DNA from: a bacterium
GTDB lineage: Bacteria > Oederibacteriota > Muellerivitia > Muellerivitales > Muellerivitaceae
Length of the DNA: 13,829 bases
Assembly (NCBI GenBank): GCA_035541195.1
Contig: DATKNU010000210.1
Span: 1-13,829, forward strand
Direction of reading: 5' to 3'
The notes under the pieces were generated by a model. That model was not told the DNA's origin and did not search any database. It saw only the letters and a program-made list of their open reading frames with translations. Position numbers and translations under genes: made by a program. This document shows positions 948 to 10,063 of this stretch, in pieces; position 1 is the first letter of the stretch; each line of letters opens with the position of its first letter.

Positions 948-2435
948 TTACTTGGTGGTTAAAACTTGTCCGACGGCCTTTTTCCAACCCGCCCAGAGCC
1001 GGGCCCGGTCGGCCGGTTTCATCTTGGGGGTGAAGACCCTGTCCACCCGGCGAATCTTTTGGATCTCGCCGGCGTTTTTCCAAAATCCCGCCGCCAACCC
1101 CGCCAAATAAGCCGCGCCCATGGCCGTCGTCTCCACCACCTTGGGACGGTTGATGCGCGCGGGCAGGATGTCCGCCTGGAACTGCATGAGCAGGTTGTTC
1201 CGGCAGGCGCCGCCGTCCACTCGCAGTTCCTTGAGCTTTAAATGGGAGTCCTTCAGCATGGCGTCCACCAGGTCCCGGGTTTGATAGCCCATGGATTCCA
1301 GCGCGGCCCTCACCACATGGGCCCGATGGGTCCCCCGGGTGAGGCCCACCAAGGCGCCCCTGGCATGGGGATCCCAATAGGGCGCGCCCAGGCCCACAAA
1401 GGCCGGCACCAGGTAAACCCCGCCGGTATCCTTCACCCCCGCGGCCACCCGCTCGGACTCGGGCGAGGTCTTCACCAAGCCCAGCCCATCCCGAATCCAC
1501 TGCACCGCCGCGCCCCCAATGAAGACCGCCCCTTCGAGGGCATAGACCGGCTGGCCTTTCGCGTCGCAAGCCAAGGTCGTCAGAAGCTTGTTCTTGGAGA
1601 CCAGGAATTTTTGGCCGAGGTTTAAAAGCAGGAAGCAGCCCGTGCCATAGGTGTTTTTGAGGGTTCCCGGTTCATGGCAACCCTGGCCGAAAAGGGCCGC
1701 CTGCTGGTCCCCCGCGATGCCCGTGATGGGGATGCCGGCGCCCAGGTAACCTTTGGCCGAGGTCGCGCCGAAAAGCCCCGAGGAAGCCTGGACCTTGGGC
1801 AAGAGCGGCGCCGGCACATGAAGGATTTCCAAAAGCCGGGGATCCCACCGTTTCTCCCGGATGTTGTAAAGCAAAGTCCTGGAGGCGTTGGTGTGGTCGG
1901 TGGCGTGGACTTTGCCGCCGGTGAGTTTCCAAAGAAGCCAGCTGTCGACGGTGCCGAAGGCCAATTGCCCCCTGGCGGCCTTGGCCCGCGCGCCCGGCAC
2001 ATGATCGAGGAGCCACTCCACCTTGGTGCCCGAAAAATAAGCGTCCACCAGGAGGCCCGTCTTTTGCTGGAAGAGCTTGCCGTGGCGTTTTTTCAGTTCG
2101 TCGCTTCGGCGCGCCGTGCGGCGGCATTGCCACACGATGGCCCGGTGGATGGGCTTGCCGGTCCCGCGGTCCCAGAGCACCGTGGTTTCCCTTTGGTTGG
2201 TGATGCCGACGGCGGCCACCGAGGAGGGCTTCACGCCCGCGGCCTTCAGCGCTTTTTGGCCCGTCGCCTCGACGGTCTGCCAGATTTCAGAGGCGTCATG
2301 TTCCACCCAGCCGGGCTGGGGGAAATATTGGGTGAACTCTTGGTAGGCGCTTCCCGCCACTTTGCCCGCCCGGTCAAAAAGGTAGGTGCGGGTACCCGTG
2401 GTGCCTTGGTCGATGGCGAGGATAAATTTGGACAT
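948..2435 (-). CDS. glpK: Glycerol kinase
   Basis: The protein MSKFILAIDQGTTGTRTYLFD...EFTQYFPQPGWVEHDASEIW...GITNQRETTVLWDR...YALEGAVFIGGAAVQWLRD... is an unmistakable FGGY-family glycerol kinase, 495 aa. The track ORF (948-2588) extends 51 codons upstream of the true start. I place the start at ATG 2433-2435(c), which has a perfect AGGAGG 4 nt upstream (TTTTTAGGAGGTTTTATG) and matches the GlpK N-terminus MSK..LAIDQGTTSSR. Confidence 0.95.
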   Translation of the reverse strand: MSKFILAIDQGTTGTRTYLFDRAGKVAGSAYQEFTQYFPQPGWVEHDASEIWQTVEATGQKALKAAGVKPSSVAAVGITNQRETTVLWDRGTGKPIHRAIVWQCRRTARRSDELKKRHGKLFQQKTGLLVDAYFSGTKVEWLLDHVPGARAKAARGQLAFGTVDSWLLWKLTGGKVHATDHTNASRTLLYNIREKRWDPRLLEILHVPAPLLPKVQASSGLFGATSAKGYLGAGIPITGIAGDQQAALFGQGCHEPGTLKNTYGTGCFLLLNLGQKFLVSKNKLLTTLACDAKGQPVYALEGAVFIGGAAVQWIRDGLGLVKTSPESERVAAGVKDTGGVYLVPAFVGLGAPYWDPHARGALVGLTRGTHRAHVVRAALESMGYQTRDLVDAMLKDSHLKLKELRVDGGACRNNLLMQFQADILPARINRPKVVETTAMGAAYLAGLAAGFWKNAGEIQKIRRVDRVFTPKMKPADRARLWAGWKKAVGQVLTTK

Positions 2436-2467
2436 AAAACCTCCTAAAAAGTTGAGCCCTATCTCAC

Positions 2468-2483
2468 CACCAAGACACCAAGA
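2468..2483. repeat. Left inverted-repeat arm: two tandem copies of the octamer CACCAAGA (CACCAAGACACCAAGA)
   Basis: Read directly from the sequence: 2468-2482 CACCAAGACACCAAG is the exact reverse complement of 2900-2914 CTTGGTGTCTTGGTG, a 15/15-bp match. The arm lies 33 nt upstream of the glpK start codon, at the left boundary of the AT-rich island. Confidence 0.85.
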
Positions 2484-2517
2484 AAAGCCAAACAAAAATA
2501 AAATTCGGAATCTATGC

Positions 2518-2850
2518 TCACTGGCCCTTCTTGTTTTTACGGTTTCGCTTTTGGTTACACTTTGAACAAAGCGCTCGCAAATTCGCAAGTGCGTGGCACT
2601 TCACATAAGCTATATGGAGCGGCACCTTACTATCGGCAAACGACTTTACCGTTCTTATATGATCAACATGTAATTCACTCGGTTTTAAGATCTTTTTACA
2701 ATCCGCACAACAGTTTTTCTGTTTCTTCAGCAGATCTTCTATCTTTTTTCTTCCATGATACTTTCTCACATTCAGAGTTCGTAGTACGTGGTAGCGAAAT
2801 CTTTCTGGCGGGAGAATGTCATCGTCAAATTTATAGGTCCGTAGTTTCAT
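2518..2850 (-). CDS. Stand-alone HNH endonuclease (zinc-finger HNH nuclease, 110 aa)
   Basis: MKLRTYKFDDDILPPERFRYHVLRTLNVRKYHGRKKIEDLLKKQKNCCADCKKILKPSELHVDHIRTVKSFADSKVPLHIAYVKCHALANLRALCSKCNQKRNRKNKKGQ. The HNH signature is present: a C-x2-C pair (CADC), then H-V-D-H-I, a conserved N (ANL), and a second C-x2-C (CSKC), where Asn replaces the usual final His (CSKCN). A Lys/Arg-rich tail follows. I prefer the start at ATG 2848-2850(c), which is preceded by AAGGAAGG with a 4-nt spacer. The track ORF begins 10 codons earlier at a TTG. Confidence 0.8.
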   Translation of the reverse strand: MKLRTYKFDDDILPPERFRYHVLRTLNVRKYHGRKKIEDLLKKQKNCCADCKKILKPSELHVDHIRTVKSFADSKVPLHIAYVKCHALANLRALCSKCNQKRNRKNKKGQ

Positions 2851-2898
2851 TTCGCCTTCCTTTTGTTTTCGTCCTCCCAAGAATTCGACTTTGCAGTC

Positions 2899-2922
2899 CT
2901 TGGTGTCTTGGTGCCTTGGCGG
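2899..2922. repeat. Right inverted-repeat arm: three tandem octamers CCTTGGTG-TCTTGGTG-CCTTGGCG (reverse complement of CACCAAGG/CACCAAGA/CGCCAAGG)
   Basis: Read directly from the sequence. The array starts 35 nt after the M48 stop codon (as read on the minus strand) and sits just upstream of the HNH gene RBS. It pairs perfectly over 15 bp with the left arm, 417 bp away. Confidence 0.85.
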
Positions 2923-2933
2923 TGAAAAGAGAT

Positions 2934-4058
2934 TTATTTCAAAGAAATTTGGACTTGTTTCCAGTCGATACCGGCAAAAAGTTTCGGATTTTTAGGTTCC
3001 AAAGTCTTCGATAAGTCTTCCAAAGCCGCCACCCGGTCCCGGCTCGCCGGGTGGTCCGACAGGAAGGCCGCGGCTTTCCCGCCCATCATTCCCTGTTCTT
3101 GGGCCAAACGGGCGAAAAAATCCTCCAAGGGTTTTACCGGTAGGTTGGCCCGGGCCAAAAGCCTGGCCCCGTCCAAATCCGCCTCTGATTCCTGTCCCCG
3201 GCTGAAGGATAGGTTCAAAACTTTTCCAGCCTCGTCGGCCAAAACCGCGAAACCGCCATGGCCGAATAAAAGGGCGATCCAAAGCTTCATGCCCAATTGC
3301 TCCACGGTGCGGCGCACCACGTGCCGGTGCAGCACATGCTGAAGTTCGTGGGCCAAGACCCCCGCCACTTCCTCGGGGCTTTGGGCTTGTTCCACCAAGC
3401 CGGTCAAAAGAAAAATCTCGCCCCCGGGCAAGGCGAAAGCGTTCACTTCGGGGTTTTGAAGGACGTGGATTTGAAAATGATAGCCCGGATTATCGGGGAT
3501 CGAGGCCGTCAACCGGGCCAGGATGGTTTGCGCCGCGTCAACCACGGGGCCCGATTCCACCACCTTGGCTTGGGCCATCTCGCTTTGGGCTTGAACCTCG
3601 CCCCAAGCCGCTTCCATGTCCAAGGGCAGGTGCTTGGCCGCGAAGTCCGCCGCGAAATGGCCCAAGGCCCAATAGCCGCCGAAAAAGAGGGCGGCCGCGC
3701 CTGAGGCGGCCAAGAGCAGGTTGCGCCATTTGGCGGCGAGGATGCTTCGGTGTTGTTTTTTGAAGTTCAGCAGGAAGCTTTTGTGGGGCTCGGGCAGTTT
3801 CAGGGCCAAGGCCCCCCGAAAATCCGGGTCTTGGACGATCAGGCTGCCGTTGAATTCCGCCCCGGGGGCGGAAGACTTAATCTTGAGGAATCCGCCGTCC
3901 TCGCCCGTGTGGGCCAATTCCAGGCTCCGGTAAGCCCACTGGAAAACCGGGCCTTCCTCGATTTGGCCCTCCAGGCCCAGCGGCCCCAGGCTCAGGCGGC
4001 AGGCCTGGGCCCCGCCCCGTCCGTCCGATCGATAAGCGGCCGCGGGGTAATCGCCCAT
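2934..4058 (-). CDS. M48-family zinc metallopeptidase (HtpX/Ste24-like) with an approximately 110-aa N-terminal extension and a TM segment
   Basis: The motifs HELQHVLHRH (HExxH) and the downstream GQESEADLDG (ExxxD) are typical of peptidase M48. A hydrophobic segment LLLAASGAAALFFGGYWALGHF precedes the catalytic domain. The track ORF starts with GTG at 4061. I prefer the adjacent ATG at 4056-4058(c), which is preceded by AGGGG. The gene lies 9 nt downstream of the GlsB/YeaQ gene stop. Confidence 0.85.
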   Translation of the reverse strand: MGDYPAAAYRSDGRGGAQACRLSLGPLGLEGQIEEGPVFQWAYRSLELAHTGEDGGFLKIKSSAPGAEFNGSLIVQDPDFRGALALKLPEPHKSFLLNFKKQHRSILAAKWRNLLLAASGAAALFFGGYWALGHFAADFAAKHLPLDMEAAWGEVQAQSEMAQAKVVESGPVVDAAQTILARLTASIPDNPGYHFQIHVLQNPEVNAFALPGGEIFLLTGLVEQAQSPEEVAGVLAHELQHVLHRHVVRRTVEQLGMKLWIALLFGHGGFAVLADEAGKVLNLSFSRGQESEADLDGARLLARANLPVKPLEDFFARLAQEQGMMGGKAAAFLSDHPASRDRVAALEDLSKTLEPKNPKLFAGIDWKQVQISLK

Positions 4059-6633: not shown

Positions 6634-6673
6634 GCCTAAATAAAAAGGCCCGATTCCTTCAGGAACCGGGCCC
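6634..6673 (-). terminator. Rho-independent terminator downstream of the outer-membrane protein gene
   Basis: The minus strand reads GGCCCGGTTCC-TGAA-GGAATCGGGCC, an 11-bp stem (one G-U pair) with a tetraloop, followed by TTTTTATTTAGG. It begins about 21 nt after the TAA at 6695-6697. Confidence 0.75.
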
Positions 6674-6694: not shown

Positions 6695-7675
6695 TTAGTG
6701 AAGCAGGAACTGGGTCCCCAAGGCGTAGGTCGGATCCACCGTCTGCACCCCGATCAGATTGGTATAAACCGGCACTTGAACCTTGGCGTAAAGCACCGAA
6801 TCCCCCGACAGGTTCCAGGAAAAACCCGGCGACAGATCCAACACCGTCCCGCCGGTGTTGGGGGCCGTCACGACCGCGGTCTGGCTGTCATTTGCCTTGC
6901 TGTCGGCATCGGCATAACGGCCCTCCACGGCCAGCGAAATGGCCAAGTCATCCGCCAAGTGGTACTGGCCCGAAATGCCCCCCGTATAGGAAGTCCCGAA
7001 GGCGTAGTCCCAAACCGCGCTGGTGGAATCGCTGGTCAGCGCCTTCGTGTGGGCGACCACGTTGAAGTTGGCGCTCAAGGTGAAGTCATCCCAAACATGG
7101 TTGTAGAGCAATCCCCCGTAAAAACCGAAGGCCCCGGTCCCCAATTGGGAATGGGTGTCCAAGTTGTCCCCCGTGACGCCGGACTTAAAATCCGTCCCGC
7201 CCGTGGGCAGGTAGGCTCCCCCCGAAAGCGCCAGGGCCTGGTGTTCCTTGGTCTTGAAGTCCGTGTCCTGCCAAAAGAAATAACGGGCCCCGACCATCAC
7301 ATCCCCGATGCCGAAGGGCGTCCCGCTGTCGGCCAGGGTCCCGCCCGGCACCGCCGGGGCGTCGCCCGCCGAAAGGGTCCAATATTTTTCCACCAGGGGC
7401 AGCATGGCTGTCAGGGTCCAATCGCCGCTGGGGCTGTAATTCAAGGTGGCGTTGAAGTTCACCTGCCGCACCGCCTCGGTTTGGGTGACATCGTCATCGC
7501 TTTGGGCGCTGGCGGTCAGGTAGATGCTTTGAAAATCCAGCCGCACCGCGCCCGCCAAAGGATGGGCGCTGGCGGAAGATTGCAGGGGATCCCCGCAGCC
7601 GCAAACCGAACAGGCCCAAGCGGCCGGGACGGTTAAAAATAAAAAGAACGAGAACAGCCATGAAAATTTCGGCAT
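6695..7675 (-). CDS. Putative outer-membrane beta-barrel protein with N-terminal Cys cluster (CSVCGCG)
   Basis: 326 aa. The signal peptide MPKFSWLFSFFLFLTVPAAWA| has an A-x-A site. Then comes CSVCGCGDP, followed by a long Gly/Thr/Tyr/aromatic-rich sequence with alternating hydrophobic residues (GAYLPTGGTDFKSGVTGD..., AFGFYGGLLYNHVWDDFTLSANFNVVAHT...), typical of small OM barrels; it resembles the Phenol_MetA_deg-type 'transporter' family. The RBS GGAGA lies 5 nt before the ATG. The family assignment is from memory and was not verified. Confidence 0.65.
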   Translation of the reverse strand: MPKFSWLFSFFLFLTVPAAWACSVCGCGDPLQSSASAHPLAGAVRLDFQSIYLTASAQSDDDVTQTEAVRQVNFNATLNYSPSGDWTLTAMLPLVEKYWTLSAGDAPAVPGGTLADSGTPFGIGDVMVGARYFFWQDTDFKTKEHQALALSGGAYLPTGGTDFKSGVTGDNLDTHSQLGTGAFGFYGGLLYNHVWDDFTLSANFNVVAHTKALTSDSTSAVWDYAFGTSYTGGISGQYHLADDLAISLAVEGRYADADSKANDSQTAVVTAPNTGGTVLDLSPGFSWNLSGDSVLYAKVQVPVYTNLIGVQTVDPTYALGTQFLLH

Positions 7676-7740
7676 TTAAATCTCCTGTGATCGAAATGGG
7701 ACGGCAAGCGTCCGTCAAGCGGTTCGAGCCTTGGGAAGAT

Positions 7741-8106
7741 TTAAGCGCGGGGCGGCGGCGAGATGGGTTCGGCTTTGAAGGAGGGGGGCGCGGCGAACAA
7801 GCGGGCATCCAGGGAGAAAAGAATTCCGGGGCGTGAAAACCGGCTATGAGGGACCCATTTGGCCGTGGGCGCGGGGGCAAAGAAACCGCGGTTCACGGGG
7901 ACGCCATCGGCGGCATAAAGGCCGGCCAAGGGGGCTTGCCCGCAAAGCGAAGGTTGGCGGGACGAGACCGGCGCCAATCCGCAAAGACCCTGGATGGACA
8001 AGGATGCCTCCAAATCCACCTTTTGGACCGCCGGGGCCGGCGGCCAGCAGGGCTCCAGCGCCAACAAGAGGGCGGCGAATAGGACGAGGCAAAATCGCGG
8101 GGACAT
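7741..8106 (-). CDS. Hypothetical small exported protein (121 aa, 4 Cys, Pro/Ala-rich)
   Basis: The N-terminus MSPRFCLVLFAALLLALEPCWPPAP looks like a signal peptide. GC3 is high and consistent with coding. The start lies 9 nt after the stop of the upstream ATP-grasp gene and the stop lies 65 nt before the OM barrel gene, on the same strand. The RBS is weak, so translation may be coupled. Several GC-rich shadow ORFs overlap this region (7833-8186+, 7844-8092-, 7846-8082+, 7893-8141-), so the call is tentative. Confidence 0.45.
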   Translation of the reverse strand: MSPRFCLVLFAALLLALEPCWPPAPAVQKVDLEASLSIQGLCGLAPVSSRQPSLCGQAPLAGLYAADGVPVNRGFFAPAPTAKWVPHSRFSRPGILFSLDARLFAAPPSFKAEPISPPPRA

Positions 8107-8115
8107 GGGTTGAAG

Positions 8116-9081
8116 CTAGCGCACCCTTCGCGGGAATTCAACCCGGGCGGGTCTTTTCGGGGCCCGGGCCCTCCACTCCCGCTTGAATTCCAAGTGGTTC
8201 CCCGGATTTAAGGCCTTGCGCAAAAGCCACCGGGCGATTTGCGGGTTGGACAGGTGGAAGATTCCCGCCATGGGCGTGAAAGTGAATTCCCCGAAGAAAA
8301 TCCCCTTGGTTGTTTTATAAAGATCCACCCGCACGAACTCGAAAGGCTTGGAAAGGGCCTCGGCGATTTTCACCATCTCCCGGAACCCGGCCGGGCGCGC
8401 GGGGACCCGGTCCGGAAGATTCCCGTGGGTTTGGATATAAACCGGCGTGAAATCGGGAACCGTAAAGTGATATTCCCGAAGGTCCACGAAACGGCCCGCG
8501 TCGGCGGCCCCAAACCAGGCTTGGCCCCTGGTGCAGAAAAAGCGGTAGTCCGTCGGCGGAGCCTCTCCCCGGGGGGCCAAGCTCGGCTCCACCAGGATTT
8601 TCTTTTCCAAACCCCGGTACTGCCTTTCCCCGTTGGTGAAAAAATAGTCCCGGCGGGCGGCCCGATAGAGCCTTTTGATTTGCCCGGGCTTCACGCGGTC
8701 GAGCAAAACCCCGTTTCCCGAGCCGTGGGCCGTTTTAGCCACCCGGGTCTTGCCCAAGTGGGGGGCCAGGAATTTCTCAACCTGCCGGAGGGAAGTCCAG
8801 GGTTTCACGCGCAGGACCGCCAGGGTGGGCGACACCTGGACGCGGGGGCAGAGCGATTTGGCCACGGCCTTGGCCTTTTCCTTGTCCACGCACCGGCGCT
8901 CCAGGTCCGACCAGTCCCGGGCATTGAGCGAGAAAAAATAATCCGAAAGATCGGCCCCCGGATCCCCCGGAGGCAGGGGCGCACGGCCCCGGGCCCGGAT
9001 AAAAAGGGGCCTGCCGATCAACCGGCTGGCGAAGGGCCCATCGGGAAGCGCCCCGGCGGCGAGCCGCCGCCACTTCGCCAT
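8116..9081 (-). CDS. ATP-grasp fold protein, TupA-like (PF14305-type); start ambiguous (alternative ATG at 9204)
   Basis: The C-terminal motif FVRVDLYKTTKGIFFGEFTFTPMAGIFH matches the TupA-like ATP-grasp signature as I recall it (RVDxY...G.iyFGExTF.P..G). So do the N-proximal ...CVDKEKAKAVAKSL... and the Gly-rich KTAHGSGNGVLLDR. The track ORF runs on to 9225, but the stretch 9082-9223 is conspicuously AT-rich and non-coding-like, and it would overlap the divergent hydrolase start at 9224. I therefore prefer the ATG at 9079-9081(c), giving 321 aa. The ATG at 9202-9204(c) (MRKFIKK...) remains possible. Confidence 0.6.
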   Translation of the reverse strand: MAKWRRLAAGALPDGPFASRLIGRPLFIRARGRAPLPPGDPGADLSDYFFSLNARDWSDLERRCVDKEKAKAVAKSLCPRVQVSPTLAVLRVKPWTSLRQVEKFLAPHLGKTRVAKTAHGSGNGVLLDRVKPGQIKRLYRAARRDYFFTNGERQYRGLEKKILVEPSLAPRGEAPPTDYRFFCTRGQAWFGAADAGRFVDLREYHFTVPDFTPVYIQTHGNLPDRVPARPAGFREMVKIAEALSKPFEFVRVDLYKTTKGIFFGEFTFTPMAGIFHLSNPQIARWLLRKALNPGNHLEFKREWRARAPKRPARVEFPRRVR

Positions 9082-9223
9082 CAAATTTTCAAGGGCATTC
9101 GGCAAGGGTGTCCAATGGTTAACACGAAATGGCCCGGCCTTTGATCGGGCAAGGGCAGGTTGGATTTTATTCGGAAAAACGGTTTTTTTGATAAACTTTC
9201 TCATTCCTCGAACCGGGAGATCC

Positions 9224-10063
9224 ATGAAACGGACGCTGCTGACCCTCTTGCTTCCCGCCCTATTGGCTTACCTGACCATCGTGGCGGCCTTCGACCTCAA
9301 ACAAAAACAGATCATTTTCGTGCCCCAACCCCTGGACCACGTGACCACCCCGCTCAAATACCACCAACCCTATGAGGTGGTCCATTTCACCGCCGCCGAC
9401 GGCGTGACCCTGAACGGTTGGTGGGTCCACCACCCCGGCCCGCCGACCCACCCGGCCCTGGTCTATTGCCACGGCAACGCGGCCATGCTCTCGCTTTTGG
9501 CCAATGTCACCCACATTTTTTACCGTTATGGGTTCGACGCCCTGGTCTTTGATTATCGGAGCTATGGGGACAGCGAGAAGGCGCCCTTGAGCGAGGCCGC
9601 GGTGGACGCCGACGCCTTGGCGGCTTATCGTTGGGTGCAGGCTAAGGGATATCCGGAAAGCCGCATCTTCATCTGGGGCCATTCCCTGGGGTCCTCGGTG
9701 GCCGCCCAGCTTTCCACCCGCACCCATCCCGCGGGGCTTTTTTTGGAAGGCGCCTTCCCTTCCATCTATGACGTATCGCGGGCGCGCTTTCCCTGGCTCC
9801 TGGTTTTCCCCTTCATGATCCATGACCCCTTCCGGACCGAGGATTACGTCCAGGAACGGACCTGTCCCTTGCTTGAGATCCACGGTGAAAAAGACACCGT
9901 GATTCCCATAAAGCTCGGCGAGGAGGTTTACGCGCGGGCCGCCGAACCCAAGCAATGGATCCAGATCCCCCAGATCGACCACCTGGACTTCCCCAGCGTG
10001 TCGGAACAGTACCGCGAACCCATCATGGATTTTGTGGCGCGATGCCTGAAGAAAAGCCATTAA
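9224..10063 (+). CDS. Alpha/beta-fold serine hydrolase (ABHD13/Bem46-like) with N-terminal membrane anchor
   Basis: The protein starts MKRTLLTLLLPALLAYLTIVAAF (TM anchor). It carries the oxyanion motif VYCHGNAA, the nucleophile elbow GHSLGS, an acid residue in IHGEKDTVIP and a His in IDHLDF, which together form a catalytic triad. I place the start at ATG 9224 with GGGAGA 3 nt upstream; the track start at 9188 is a TTG. This is the only plus-strand gene in the window. Confidence 0.85.
   Translation: MKRTLLTLLLPALLAYLTIVAAFDLKQKQIIFVPQPLDHVTTPLKYHQPYEVVHFTAADGVTLNGWWVHHPGPPTHPALVYCHGNAAMLSLLANVTHIFYRYGFDALVFDYRSYGDSEKAPLSEAAVDADALAAYRWVQAKGYPESRIFIWGHSLGSSVAAQLSTRTHPAGLFLEGAFPSIYDVSRARFPWLLVFPFMIHDPFRTEDYVQERTCPLLEIHGEKDTVIPIKLGEEVYARAAEPKQWIQIPQIDHLDFPSVSEQYREPIMDFVARCLKKSH

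Follow-up and report, generated by a model that had tools for sequence, protein, structure and literature searches.

The subject of this analysis is a stretch of 13,829 nucleotides (nt) from the bacterial contig DATKNU010000210.1—hereafter, the window—and, within it, a minus-strand unit in which an open reading frame (ORF) for a TupA-like ATP-grasp enzyme is followed, after a 9-nt spacer, by an ORF of 121 amino acids and, after a further spacer of 65 nt, by an ORF of 326 amino acids encoding an outer-membrane (OM) β-barrel. The window has a GC content of ~60% and also carries genes for GatA/GatB, a HAD hydrolase, an alpha/beta hydrolase (abhydrolase), a Band_7 protein, an MFS transporter, an M48 peptidase and a glycerol kinase. 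The original prediction for this DNA had described three ORFs with their spacers, an intrinsic terminator and an AT-rich divergent region, all of which are present where it placed them; the gene identities it gave also hold—a TupA-like ATP-grasp enzyme, an exported small protein that contains Cys, and an OM barrel with CxxCxC at its N-terminus. Its proposal that the three genes form a functional triad fared differently. The best overall explanation, to which we assign a probability of about 0.6, is that an unrelated ATP-grasp gene was inserted next to a conserved, coupled module consisting of the small protein and the barrel, with a putative metal gate in the barrel as the weaker part of the proposal.

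The features of the unit are as follows. Related loci are designated by L numbers, L001 being the closest relative (barrel 86% identical), and alignments by A numbers; PPP stands for three consecutive prolines.

9082 to 9223, no strand: divergent, AT-richer intergenic region between the abhydrolase gene (plus strand) and the ATP-grasp gene (minus strand), probable promoter for the minus-strand genes
8116 to 9081, minus strand: TupA-like ATP-grasp amidoligase gene (PF14305), a lineage-specific single-gene insertion, absent at other barrel loci, with the indel mapped
8107 to 8150, minus strand: leader DNA of the small ORF, in common with relatives that lack the ATP-grasp gene (alignment A4 against L001 and L006)
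7741 to 8106, minus strand: small exported protein of 121 amino acids, from an unnamed family (alignments A2 and A6, substitution rates)
8029 to 8106, minus strand: N-terminal export signal or membrane anchor of the small protein, MSPRFCLVLFAALLLALEPCWPPAPA (Kyte-Doolittle profile, helix in the AlphaFold2 (AF2) model)
7750 to 7758, minus strand: Pro codons CCG CCG CCC of the PPP tail, PPP being invariant in A2 and A6 despite wobble variation
7676 to 7740, minus strand: junction between the small ORF and the barrel gene, with an anti-Shine-Dalgarno (anti-SD)-like AUCUUCC at 7734-7740, a hairpin GACGG..CCGTC at 7700-7716 and the Shine-Dalgarno (SD) sequence AGGAG at 7682-7686
6695 to 7675, minus strand: 12-stranded OM β-barrel of 326 amino acids, of the FapF/COG4313 structural class (AF2 model, fold matches)
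7586 to 7612, minus strand: CSVCGCGDP, invariant, predicted to open the mature barrel once signal peptidase I has cut at an AxA-type site
6636 to 6673, minus strand: intrinsic-terminator-like hairpin and T-tract at the end of the unit (12-bp stem with 8 GC pairs, tail TTTTTATTT)

A conserved two-gene envelope module

Homologues of the barrel fell into 129 clusters of a large protein collection, and the surrounding loci were fetched (69 from genomes and 80 from metagenomes), together with the contexts of individual proteins. Conservation of the gene pair was assessed in FCPU426/Firestonebacteria-like loci with enough upstream sequence: at L001-L023 and L085-L110, a small ORF lies upstream of the barrel gene and ends 32-93 nt before it, with L096 as the sole FCPU426-like exception without an ORF encoding a PPP tail (a PPP ORF). 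The encoded protein, 121 amino acids long in the window and ~120-130 in relatives, has an N-terminal hydrophobic segment (Kyte-Doolittle peak of 2.18) with a conserved LxxEP pattern, and contains 4 Cys in the window. AF2 predicts a helix at residues 3-16, with a predicted local distance difference test score (pLDDT) of 84-90, and disorder throughout the remainder (overall pLDDT of 56, predicted template modeling score (pTM) of 0.20). The ratio of nonsynonymous to synonymous substitution rates (dN/dS) is 0.48 against L001 and 0.19-0.24 against L006, while that of the barrel is 0.09; on these ratios, the small ORF is under purifying selection. Moreover, PPP is kept through synonymous changes, being encoded as CCG CCG CCC, CCA CCA CCC or CCU CCU CCC. 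No Pfam or NCBIfam family was found for the small proteins, with noise only at E≤10, and a hidden Markov model (HMM) of the family matched only 31 clusters among 1.84 billion representatives, all of 101-141 amino acids save two weak, large matches (461 and 682 amino acids).

These proteins come in distinct types. Type A combines a hydrophobic N-terminus of the LWVxEPF type with the cluster CxxCGMxDxCGxxCCC...PGLYAAGC and a KW.P motif; type B is characterized by GGQWxxLQSxAWxNM...FDGNHPCPLCRFIQKEK and a strong second transmembrane (TM) segment located ~20 residues before PPP. Both end in [D/E]xx[S/T]PPP[E/R/K], 1-9 residues from the stop codon, and this [S/T]PPP[E/R/K] tail was found in more than 40 non-redundant loci with GC contents from 48 to 74%. 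The window protein, with the tail SPPPR, falls, together with L001, L006 and L085, in a type-A-derived clade that has lost most of its Cys. A third flavour, rich in Cys and His (e.g., HCVCDHAADADCDCPHHE or ECCCGKHD..CDCPDC) and ending in TPPPR, occurs in a subset of Myxococcota loci; in some loci of this phylum, a CusF-like or cytochrome-c-like gene is located between the PPP ORF and the barrel gene. Taken at the level of sequence, these comparisons show that the small protein and the barrel constitute a conserved, uncharacterised two-gene envelope module.

A different small secreted protein is encoded at L096 (~3330-3740), upstream of the barrel gene at 4057: it is rich in Cys, His and Met, with CLKCMAH...HGEAHAACAMSC motifs and the signal cleavage site AWA/E, and has no Pfam match.

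The junction of the two genes

A strong SD (AGGAG) precedes every barrel gene examined, and in the minimum free energy (MFE) folds of 20 of 21 loci it pairs with the 3' end of the small ORF, which is rich in pyrimidines. In 10 of these 21 loci, at most 5% of 300 dinucleotide shuffles matched the energy of the duplex formed between the tail and the segment before the barrel start codon (mean z of -1.87, down to -5.7). The 5' arm of the duplex usually begins at the PPP codons and spans 14-17 nt. Codon usage points in the same direction: CCU, which creates CCUCC, accounts for 43% of the tail Pro codons as opposed to 16% elsewhere in the same loci (odds ratio of 4.0, p=7e-13), and for 31% as opposed to 5% in genomes above 60% GC (p=6e-7), these p-values being optimistic because the loci are phylogenetically related. 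In a clade of nine sequences, the junction is organized in three helices—the PPP codons paired with the SD, one hairpin that spans the stop codon and a second, GC hairpin—with 93% pairing against 35-49% in slid controls, 7 compensatory pairs and none of 500 shuffles reaching the observed value. In the clade of the window, the anti-SD has moved to the 7-11 nt that directly follow the stop codon (AUCUUCC in the window, AUCUCC in L001 and AAUUUCCUUCA in L085), and the MFE helix of the window, UUAAAUCUUC/GGAGAUUUAA, gives a probability of 0.80 that the SD is paired. A search against Rfam returned no family at the gathering threshold in the whole window and none of relevance at E≤1 at the junctions. 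Since the duplexes between SD and tail beat shuffles in these 10 loci, CCU is enriched in the tail and one clade covaries, we infer that the coupling of barrel synthesis to translation of the small-ORF end is a conserved design of the module.

A purely RNA-level effect was also considered as the cause of PPP invariance and rejected, as the window clade retains PPP with CCG, CCA and CCC codons. Separately, the inner GC hairpin of the nine-sequence clade (L005, 7890-8003, and eight relatives; alignment A9) has a GCCUCUUGCGGGGC core, with 5 of 10 pairs covarying and no Rfam match. A (T)CCAAT(T)/CCATT element recurs 3-10 nt before the barrel SD in most FCPU426-like loci, across clades (for instance, at L005 ~7980-7990 and at 7689-7699 of the window); several clades use it as the 3' arm of a pairing with the codons that follow PPP.

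The small ORF could also act mainly in cis, as a sensor—a reading that we regard as unlikely. A ribosome pausing at PPP, over the anti-SD, would keep the ribosome-binding site of the barrel gene open; the length of the pause, set by EF-P or by the pulling force arising from export, membrane insertion, oxidation or metal binding of the Cys-rich chain as it emerges, would set the amount of barrel made. In that case, the small-ORF family might represent a new class of translational pause leaders, with a PPP pause site laid over the anti-SD of a gene for an OM channel. The two ends of the protein are indeed the parts most strongly shared across type A, type B and the Myxococcota type, and the protein in between is predicted to be disordered. 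Moreover, the PPP tail is predicted to be cytoplasmic in type B and periplasmic in type A, such that the ribosome is the only compartment common to the motif. The anti-SD arm starts exactly at the PPP codons in many loci, its 14-17 nt corresponding to about one ribosome footprint; to this add the CCU enrichment at the tail and the retention of the PPP residues in the window clade, where the codons are CCG and the anti-SD has shifted.

Precedent is found in the monitoring substrates, which use stem-loops that mask the SD and include a candidate, 'uA_LPPP', upstream of secA (PMC10987492). Like SecM, MifM, VemP, the RAPP-type ApdA/ApdP and candidate uA_LPPP, the small ORF described here is located directly upstream of, and co-directional with, an envelope gene, and the traits in common extend to the encoded peptide, which begins with a signal or TM segment, varies in its body and keeps a Pro-containing motif near the stop codon. 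The downstream SD would be masked by a stem that a ribosome at the motif could open; the pairing is significant in 10 of 21 loci and not in the window. However, known monitoring substrates all regulate components of the Sec or YidC machinery, whereas the downstream gene here encodes an OM channel; the motif is a plain PPP instead of RAPP or GIRAGP, and the body contains a Cys cluster conserved within each type. Conservation of this cluster within type A suggests a function for the mature small protein. Two further points count against a pause leader: stalls at PPP are normally relieved by EF-P, and a gene intervenes between the PPP ORF and the barrel gene in L154, L157, L038 and L070. If a leader of this kind did operate, it would extend the monitoring-substrate principle from the Sec/YidC machinery to an OM, possibly metal-gated, channel. 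Polyproline codons that double as an anti-SD would offer a compact way in which protein pausing and RNA masking could couple two envelope genes.

The outer-membrane barrel and its Cys-rich N-terminus

The barrel ORF starts with MPKFSWLFSFFLFLTVPAAWA, directly followed by CSVCGCGDP. This motif and the Ala before it (A/CSVCGCGDP) are invariant in 72 aligned barrel homologues, down to 35% identity; further invariant residues are found in G122xGD125, at R131 and in D173xH175, and in the N273TGG276 motif G275 and G276 are invariant and N273 and T274 nearly so. A search of the literature for the motif CSVCGCG did not find it. The possibility that the first Cys belongs to a lipoprotein was rejected, since no lipobox ([LVI][ASTVI][GAS]C) is present and an AxA pattern is seen across ~70 loci: positions -3 to -1 read AWA, AQA, ARA, ALA, SWS and the like, with a residue that is often bulky or charged (W, Q, R, E or H) at position -2. 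From this AxA-type site it follows that the mature barrel should start with a free N-terminal Cys.

The AF2 model of the barrel (pLDDT of 88.7, pTM of 0.83) consists of 12 long strands, with no helix predicted between the signal peptide and strand 1. The best structural matches obtained with Foldseek were FapF and the COG4313 channel Pput2725 (E=3e-13 and 3e-11, respectively), ranking ahead of autotransporter translocator domains, and a barrel profile searched against PDB sequences retrieved FapF at E=1.7e-4. Classification by HMM, which the original prediction had put forward as a check, gave a divided outcome: PF13557 matched 11 of the 72 aligned relatives (best E of 1.9e-10), with no match at E≤1 for the window protein, and the fold itself is that of the 12-stranded FapF/Pput2725 barrels. 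COG4313 channels are numerous and poorly understood.

The window barrel has the 12-stranded fold in common with COG4313/PF13557 channels such as Pput2725 of Pseudomonas putida F1 (PDB 4RL8). In contrast to these, however, it lacks a PF13557 match, and its family has the invariant CSVCGCGDP mature N-terminus, not described for COG4313 channels, is unlinked to genes for aromatic or hydrophobic catabolism and is paired with a small PPP-tail protein. The barrel fold also resembles that of FapF, the channel that secretes amyloid subunits in Pseudomonas (PDB 5O65), at an identity of 15-16%, but the window has no fap operon, and its barrel has neither a periplasmic coiled coil nor a predicted plug helix; the genes neighbouring the barrel loci encode abhydrolase, Band_7, SRP54, OmpH and similar proteins, not FapA-F. 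In Pput2725, the ~14 N-terminal residues occlude the lumen (PMC4493636). An N-terminal extension with metal-ligand residues is required for Cu handling by PcoB, another OM barrel (PMC12509749); the comparison with PcoB/CopB, a copper channel whose metal-liganding N-terminal domain is disordered, is one of functional analogy only, PcoB being no structural relative, and the extension in the window family contains three invariant Cys and an Asp.

Relatives of the barrel occur in the candidate division FCPU426, Firestonebacteria, Latescibacteria, Krumholzibacteriia and Myxococcota. One culturable carrier is Anaeromyxobacter oryzae Red232 (locus L055, about 4.53-4.54 Mb of NZ_AP025591.1). For the phyla outside the FCPU426 group, a census of 138 nearest neighbours in 82 non-redundant barrel loci revealed no single dominant partner; CusF_Ec proteins (3), cupredoxins (2), Dps-type ferritins (3), resistance-nodulation-division (RND) pumps (3) and OEP (2) were among the genes counted. 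One barrel locus adjoins genes for CzcB/OEP, a BlaR-like protein and thioredoxin, and the Cys- or His-rich small partners come in three unrelated flavours. Taken together, the Cys3-Asp motif of the barrel, these partners, the Cys/His/Met-rich protein of L096 and a minority of metal-related neighbours hint at thiophilic metals or thiol chemistry and suggest that the barrel may act as a channel for a thiophilic metal.

Several individual arrangements were recorded alongside the census. In two metagenomic Myxococcota-like loci, L154 (3078/3510-3962/4036) and L157 (336/432-923/997), a Cys-rich PPP-tail ORF, a gene for a CusF_Ec-domain protein and the barrel gene follow each other co-directionally, and in L038 and L070 it is a cytochrome-c-like protein that occupies the middle position. 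A cupredoxin-like protein is encoded directly before the barrel in L048. At three loci of other lineages, the barrel gene is directly preceded by a Dps-type ferritin gene in the same orientation (L076, 7373-7858; L026, 4651-5133; L027, 4408-4890).

The preferred reading can be put together as follows. The barrel SD would be masked by pairing with the 3' end of the small-protein gene, the masking segment being the PPP codons in most relatives and the 7 nt after the stop codon in the window, and ribosomes finishing the small-protein gene would open the ribosome-binding site of the barrel gene. Cleavage by signal peptidase I would leave CSVCGCGDP at the N-terminus of the barrel; by analogy with Pput2725 and FapF, this Cys-rich segment of ~20 residues may lie in or under the lumen as a candidate gate—one in which thiols or a bound metal would control the passive passage of a thiophilic metal, for instance Cu. 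The small protein, rich in Cys and His, would act as a periplasmic partner and/or as a translational leader. We put forward the metal gate, which draws on analogy with these other barrels, tentatively, the odds being somewhat against it.

Several observations weigh against this interpretation as a whole or in part. With regard to the junction, the mean pairing probability of the SD was 0.83 as observed and 0.64 with dinucleotide-shuffled tails; as shuffled C/U-rich tails also pair with the SD, this signal is in part compositional, and reliance was placed on duplex energy, codon usage and covariation for that reason. Considered alone, the SD/anti-SD helix of the window is statistically indistinguishable from those of shuffled tails. 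In the clade of the window, most of the Cys cluster of the small protein is gone (4 Cys are left in the window itself), and dN/dS against L001 is 0.48. No PPP ORF lies near the barrel at most Myxococcota loci, so that either the barrel can work without it or the partner is encoded elsewhere. The luminal position of the barrel N-terminus is an analogy, because residues 22-42, the 21-residue segment before strand 1, were modelled at a pLDDT of 51-72. Finally, metal-related neighbours were present in only about 10 of the 82 loci of the census, in which two-component regulators were commonest.

Instead of a coupled partner, the small protein might be the cargo of the barrel: disordered and exported by Sec, it would be threaded through a FapF-like channel, with the PPP tail as an OM targeting tag. 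The closest solved structure is that of FapF, a secretion channel for unfolded polypeptides (PMC5557850), and a disordered protein with conserved termini and a variable body is what would be expected of cargo with signals at both ends. Nevertheless, this possibility appears improbable. The neighbours include no FapA-E-like proteins, and the barrel has neither an N-terminal coiled coil nor a plug helix; type B partners, with their internal TM segment, would remain in the inner membrane; many barrels occur without any such partner; and the uptake-type COG4313 channel Pput2725 matches the fold equally well.

Our results suggest an unnamed subfamily within the FapF/COG4313 channel class, an unnamed family of partners and a junction compatible with pause-coupled translation. 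If correct, the subfamily would be marked by its invariant Cys-rich mature N-terminus, and a thiol- or metal-gated member would give COG4313 channels a concrete and testable function.

The ATP-grasp gene as a single-gene insertion

The ATP-grasp ORF extends over 8116-9225 on the minus strand, with 9081 as the likely start among the candidates 9081, 9105 and 9204. Its product matches PF14305 at E=1.9e-20 over profile positions 18-236 of 241, and the score of 73.8 bits, against a gathering cut-off of 25, confirms by HMM the family assignment made in the original prediction; PF14305 is also carried by all 120 ATP-grasp homologues listed. The upstream region at 9082-9223 has a GC content of 46% as opposed to ~60% nearby and contains a single sigma-70-like match at 9114-9085.

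Comparison with the relatives separates this gene from its neighbours. In a tblastn search within 4-8 kb of the barrel gene, no ATP-grasp gene was found at any of 161 other barrel-homologue loci. The three closest ATP-grasp relatives (L082-L084; identities of 63, 56 and 65%) are solitary genes in three unrelated contexts, none of which contains a barrel or small-peptide neighbour. L001 is syntenic with the window for GatCAB, HAD, abhydrolase, small ORF, barrel, Band_7, MFS, M48 and GlpK, without an ATP-grasp gene. Alignment of the window DNA with L001 and L006 revealed homology on both sides of a ~1-kb segment (about 8150-9180 of the window)—one block of ~45 nt by the abhydrolase start and another of ~45 nt in the leader of the small ORF. 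In fact, the last ~10 codons of the ATP-grasp gene and its TAG, translated as ARVEFPRRVR*, fall within the pre-existing leader of the small ORF, and the 9-nt spacer is likewise part of this conserved leader DNA (8107-8150). The search for signatures of a mobile element near the ATP-grasp gene gave no convincing flanking repeats and no upstream DNA in common with relatives. At the level of these alignments, a solitary TupA-like ATP-grasp gene is shown to have been inserted in this lineage between the promoter region of the abhydrolase gene and the leader of the next gene, its co-transcription with the neighbours being an accident of position.

The closest relatives are found at L082 6001-6963, L083 6001-6783 and L084 6001-6597, each oriented against its neighbours, and at L083 the gene adjoins an integrase gene, a MerR-like gene and a gene for a type IV secretion system (T4SS) coupling protein. 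Their solitary occurrence, opposite orientation and different contexts suggest that the ATP-grasp gene moves as single-gene cargo. Several further indels distinguish the window from L001—a gene for an unknown protein of 564 amino acids after the abhydrolase gene, a DoxX_2/BrnA/MTHFR block between Band_7 and MFS, and an FMN_bind_2 gene before M48—which points to a high gene flux, with the ATP-grasp insertion as one of several events.

These findings bear directly on the functional triad, in which the ATP-grasp enzyme would modify the small peptide in the manner of a graspetide ligase, or would act on an envelope component, with the barrel exporting the product or displaying it. The proposal draws on one genome, in which three co-directional genes are separated by spacers of 9 and 65 nt and closed by a single terminator. 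The original prediction had staked it on the three-gene order recurring in related genomes; the three genes co-occur nowhere else among the loci examined—neither at the 161 barrel loci nor at the 3 ATP-grasp loci—and the syntenic L001 and L006 have the pair of small protein and barrel without the enzyme. Comparison with known systems leads to the same conclusion. PF14305 genes usually lie in loci for cell-wall or capsule polysaccharide biosynthesis; the window ORF, which matches the family model nearly end to end, is located outside any polysaccharide or teichuronopeptide locus, flanked by the abhydrolase gene and the small ORF. Graspetide-type loci for ribosomally synthesized and post-translationally modified peptides (RiPPs) are marked by a recurrent adjacency of ligase and precursor, in contrast to the 0 of 161 barrel or peptide loci with an ATP-grasp gene found here, and PF14305 is not known to be among the graspetide ligase families. 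Moreover, graspetide precursors are cytoplasmic, without a Sec signal, and have a core rich in Thr/Ser and Asp/Glu, whereas the small protein has an export signal, which misfits cytoplasmic maturation, and conserved Cys, Gly and Pro. We therefore regard the triad as very improbable. The case also calls for caution in operon-based functional inference, as a gap as short as 9 nt between co-directional genes, seen in one genome, can result from the recent insertion of a single gene.

Scarcely credible, finally, is the idea that GC-rich DNA merely simulates a small ORF without coding for it—a concern raised in the original prediction—and that the barrel is the only gene: although the product is Pro/Ala-rich and of low complexity, with no family match and a low-confidence structure, the more than 40 loci and wide range of GC contents given above share its frame and length as well as the N-terminal signal and the PPP tail, its dN/dS is below 1 (0.19-0.48), and 31 clusters were found, all but two of 101-141 amino acids, which identifies a real gene upstream of the barrel at related loci.

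Elsewhere in the window, a low-GC island at 2250-3000 (0.41-0.47 against ~0.6) holds an ORF for an HNH endonuclease (2518-2880, minus strand; PF01844). It sits between the glycerol kinase and M48 peptidase genes, where L001 has a different ORF of 109 amino acids, and is probably a small mobile insertion. An ORF of 182 amino acids at 390-938 on the minus strand encodes a protein with a signal-peptide-like N-terminus and no Pfam or NCBIfam match.

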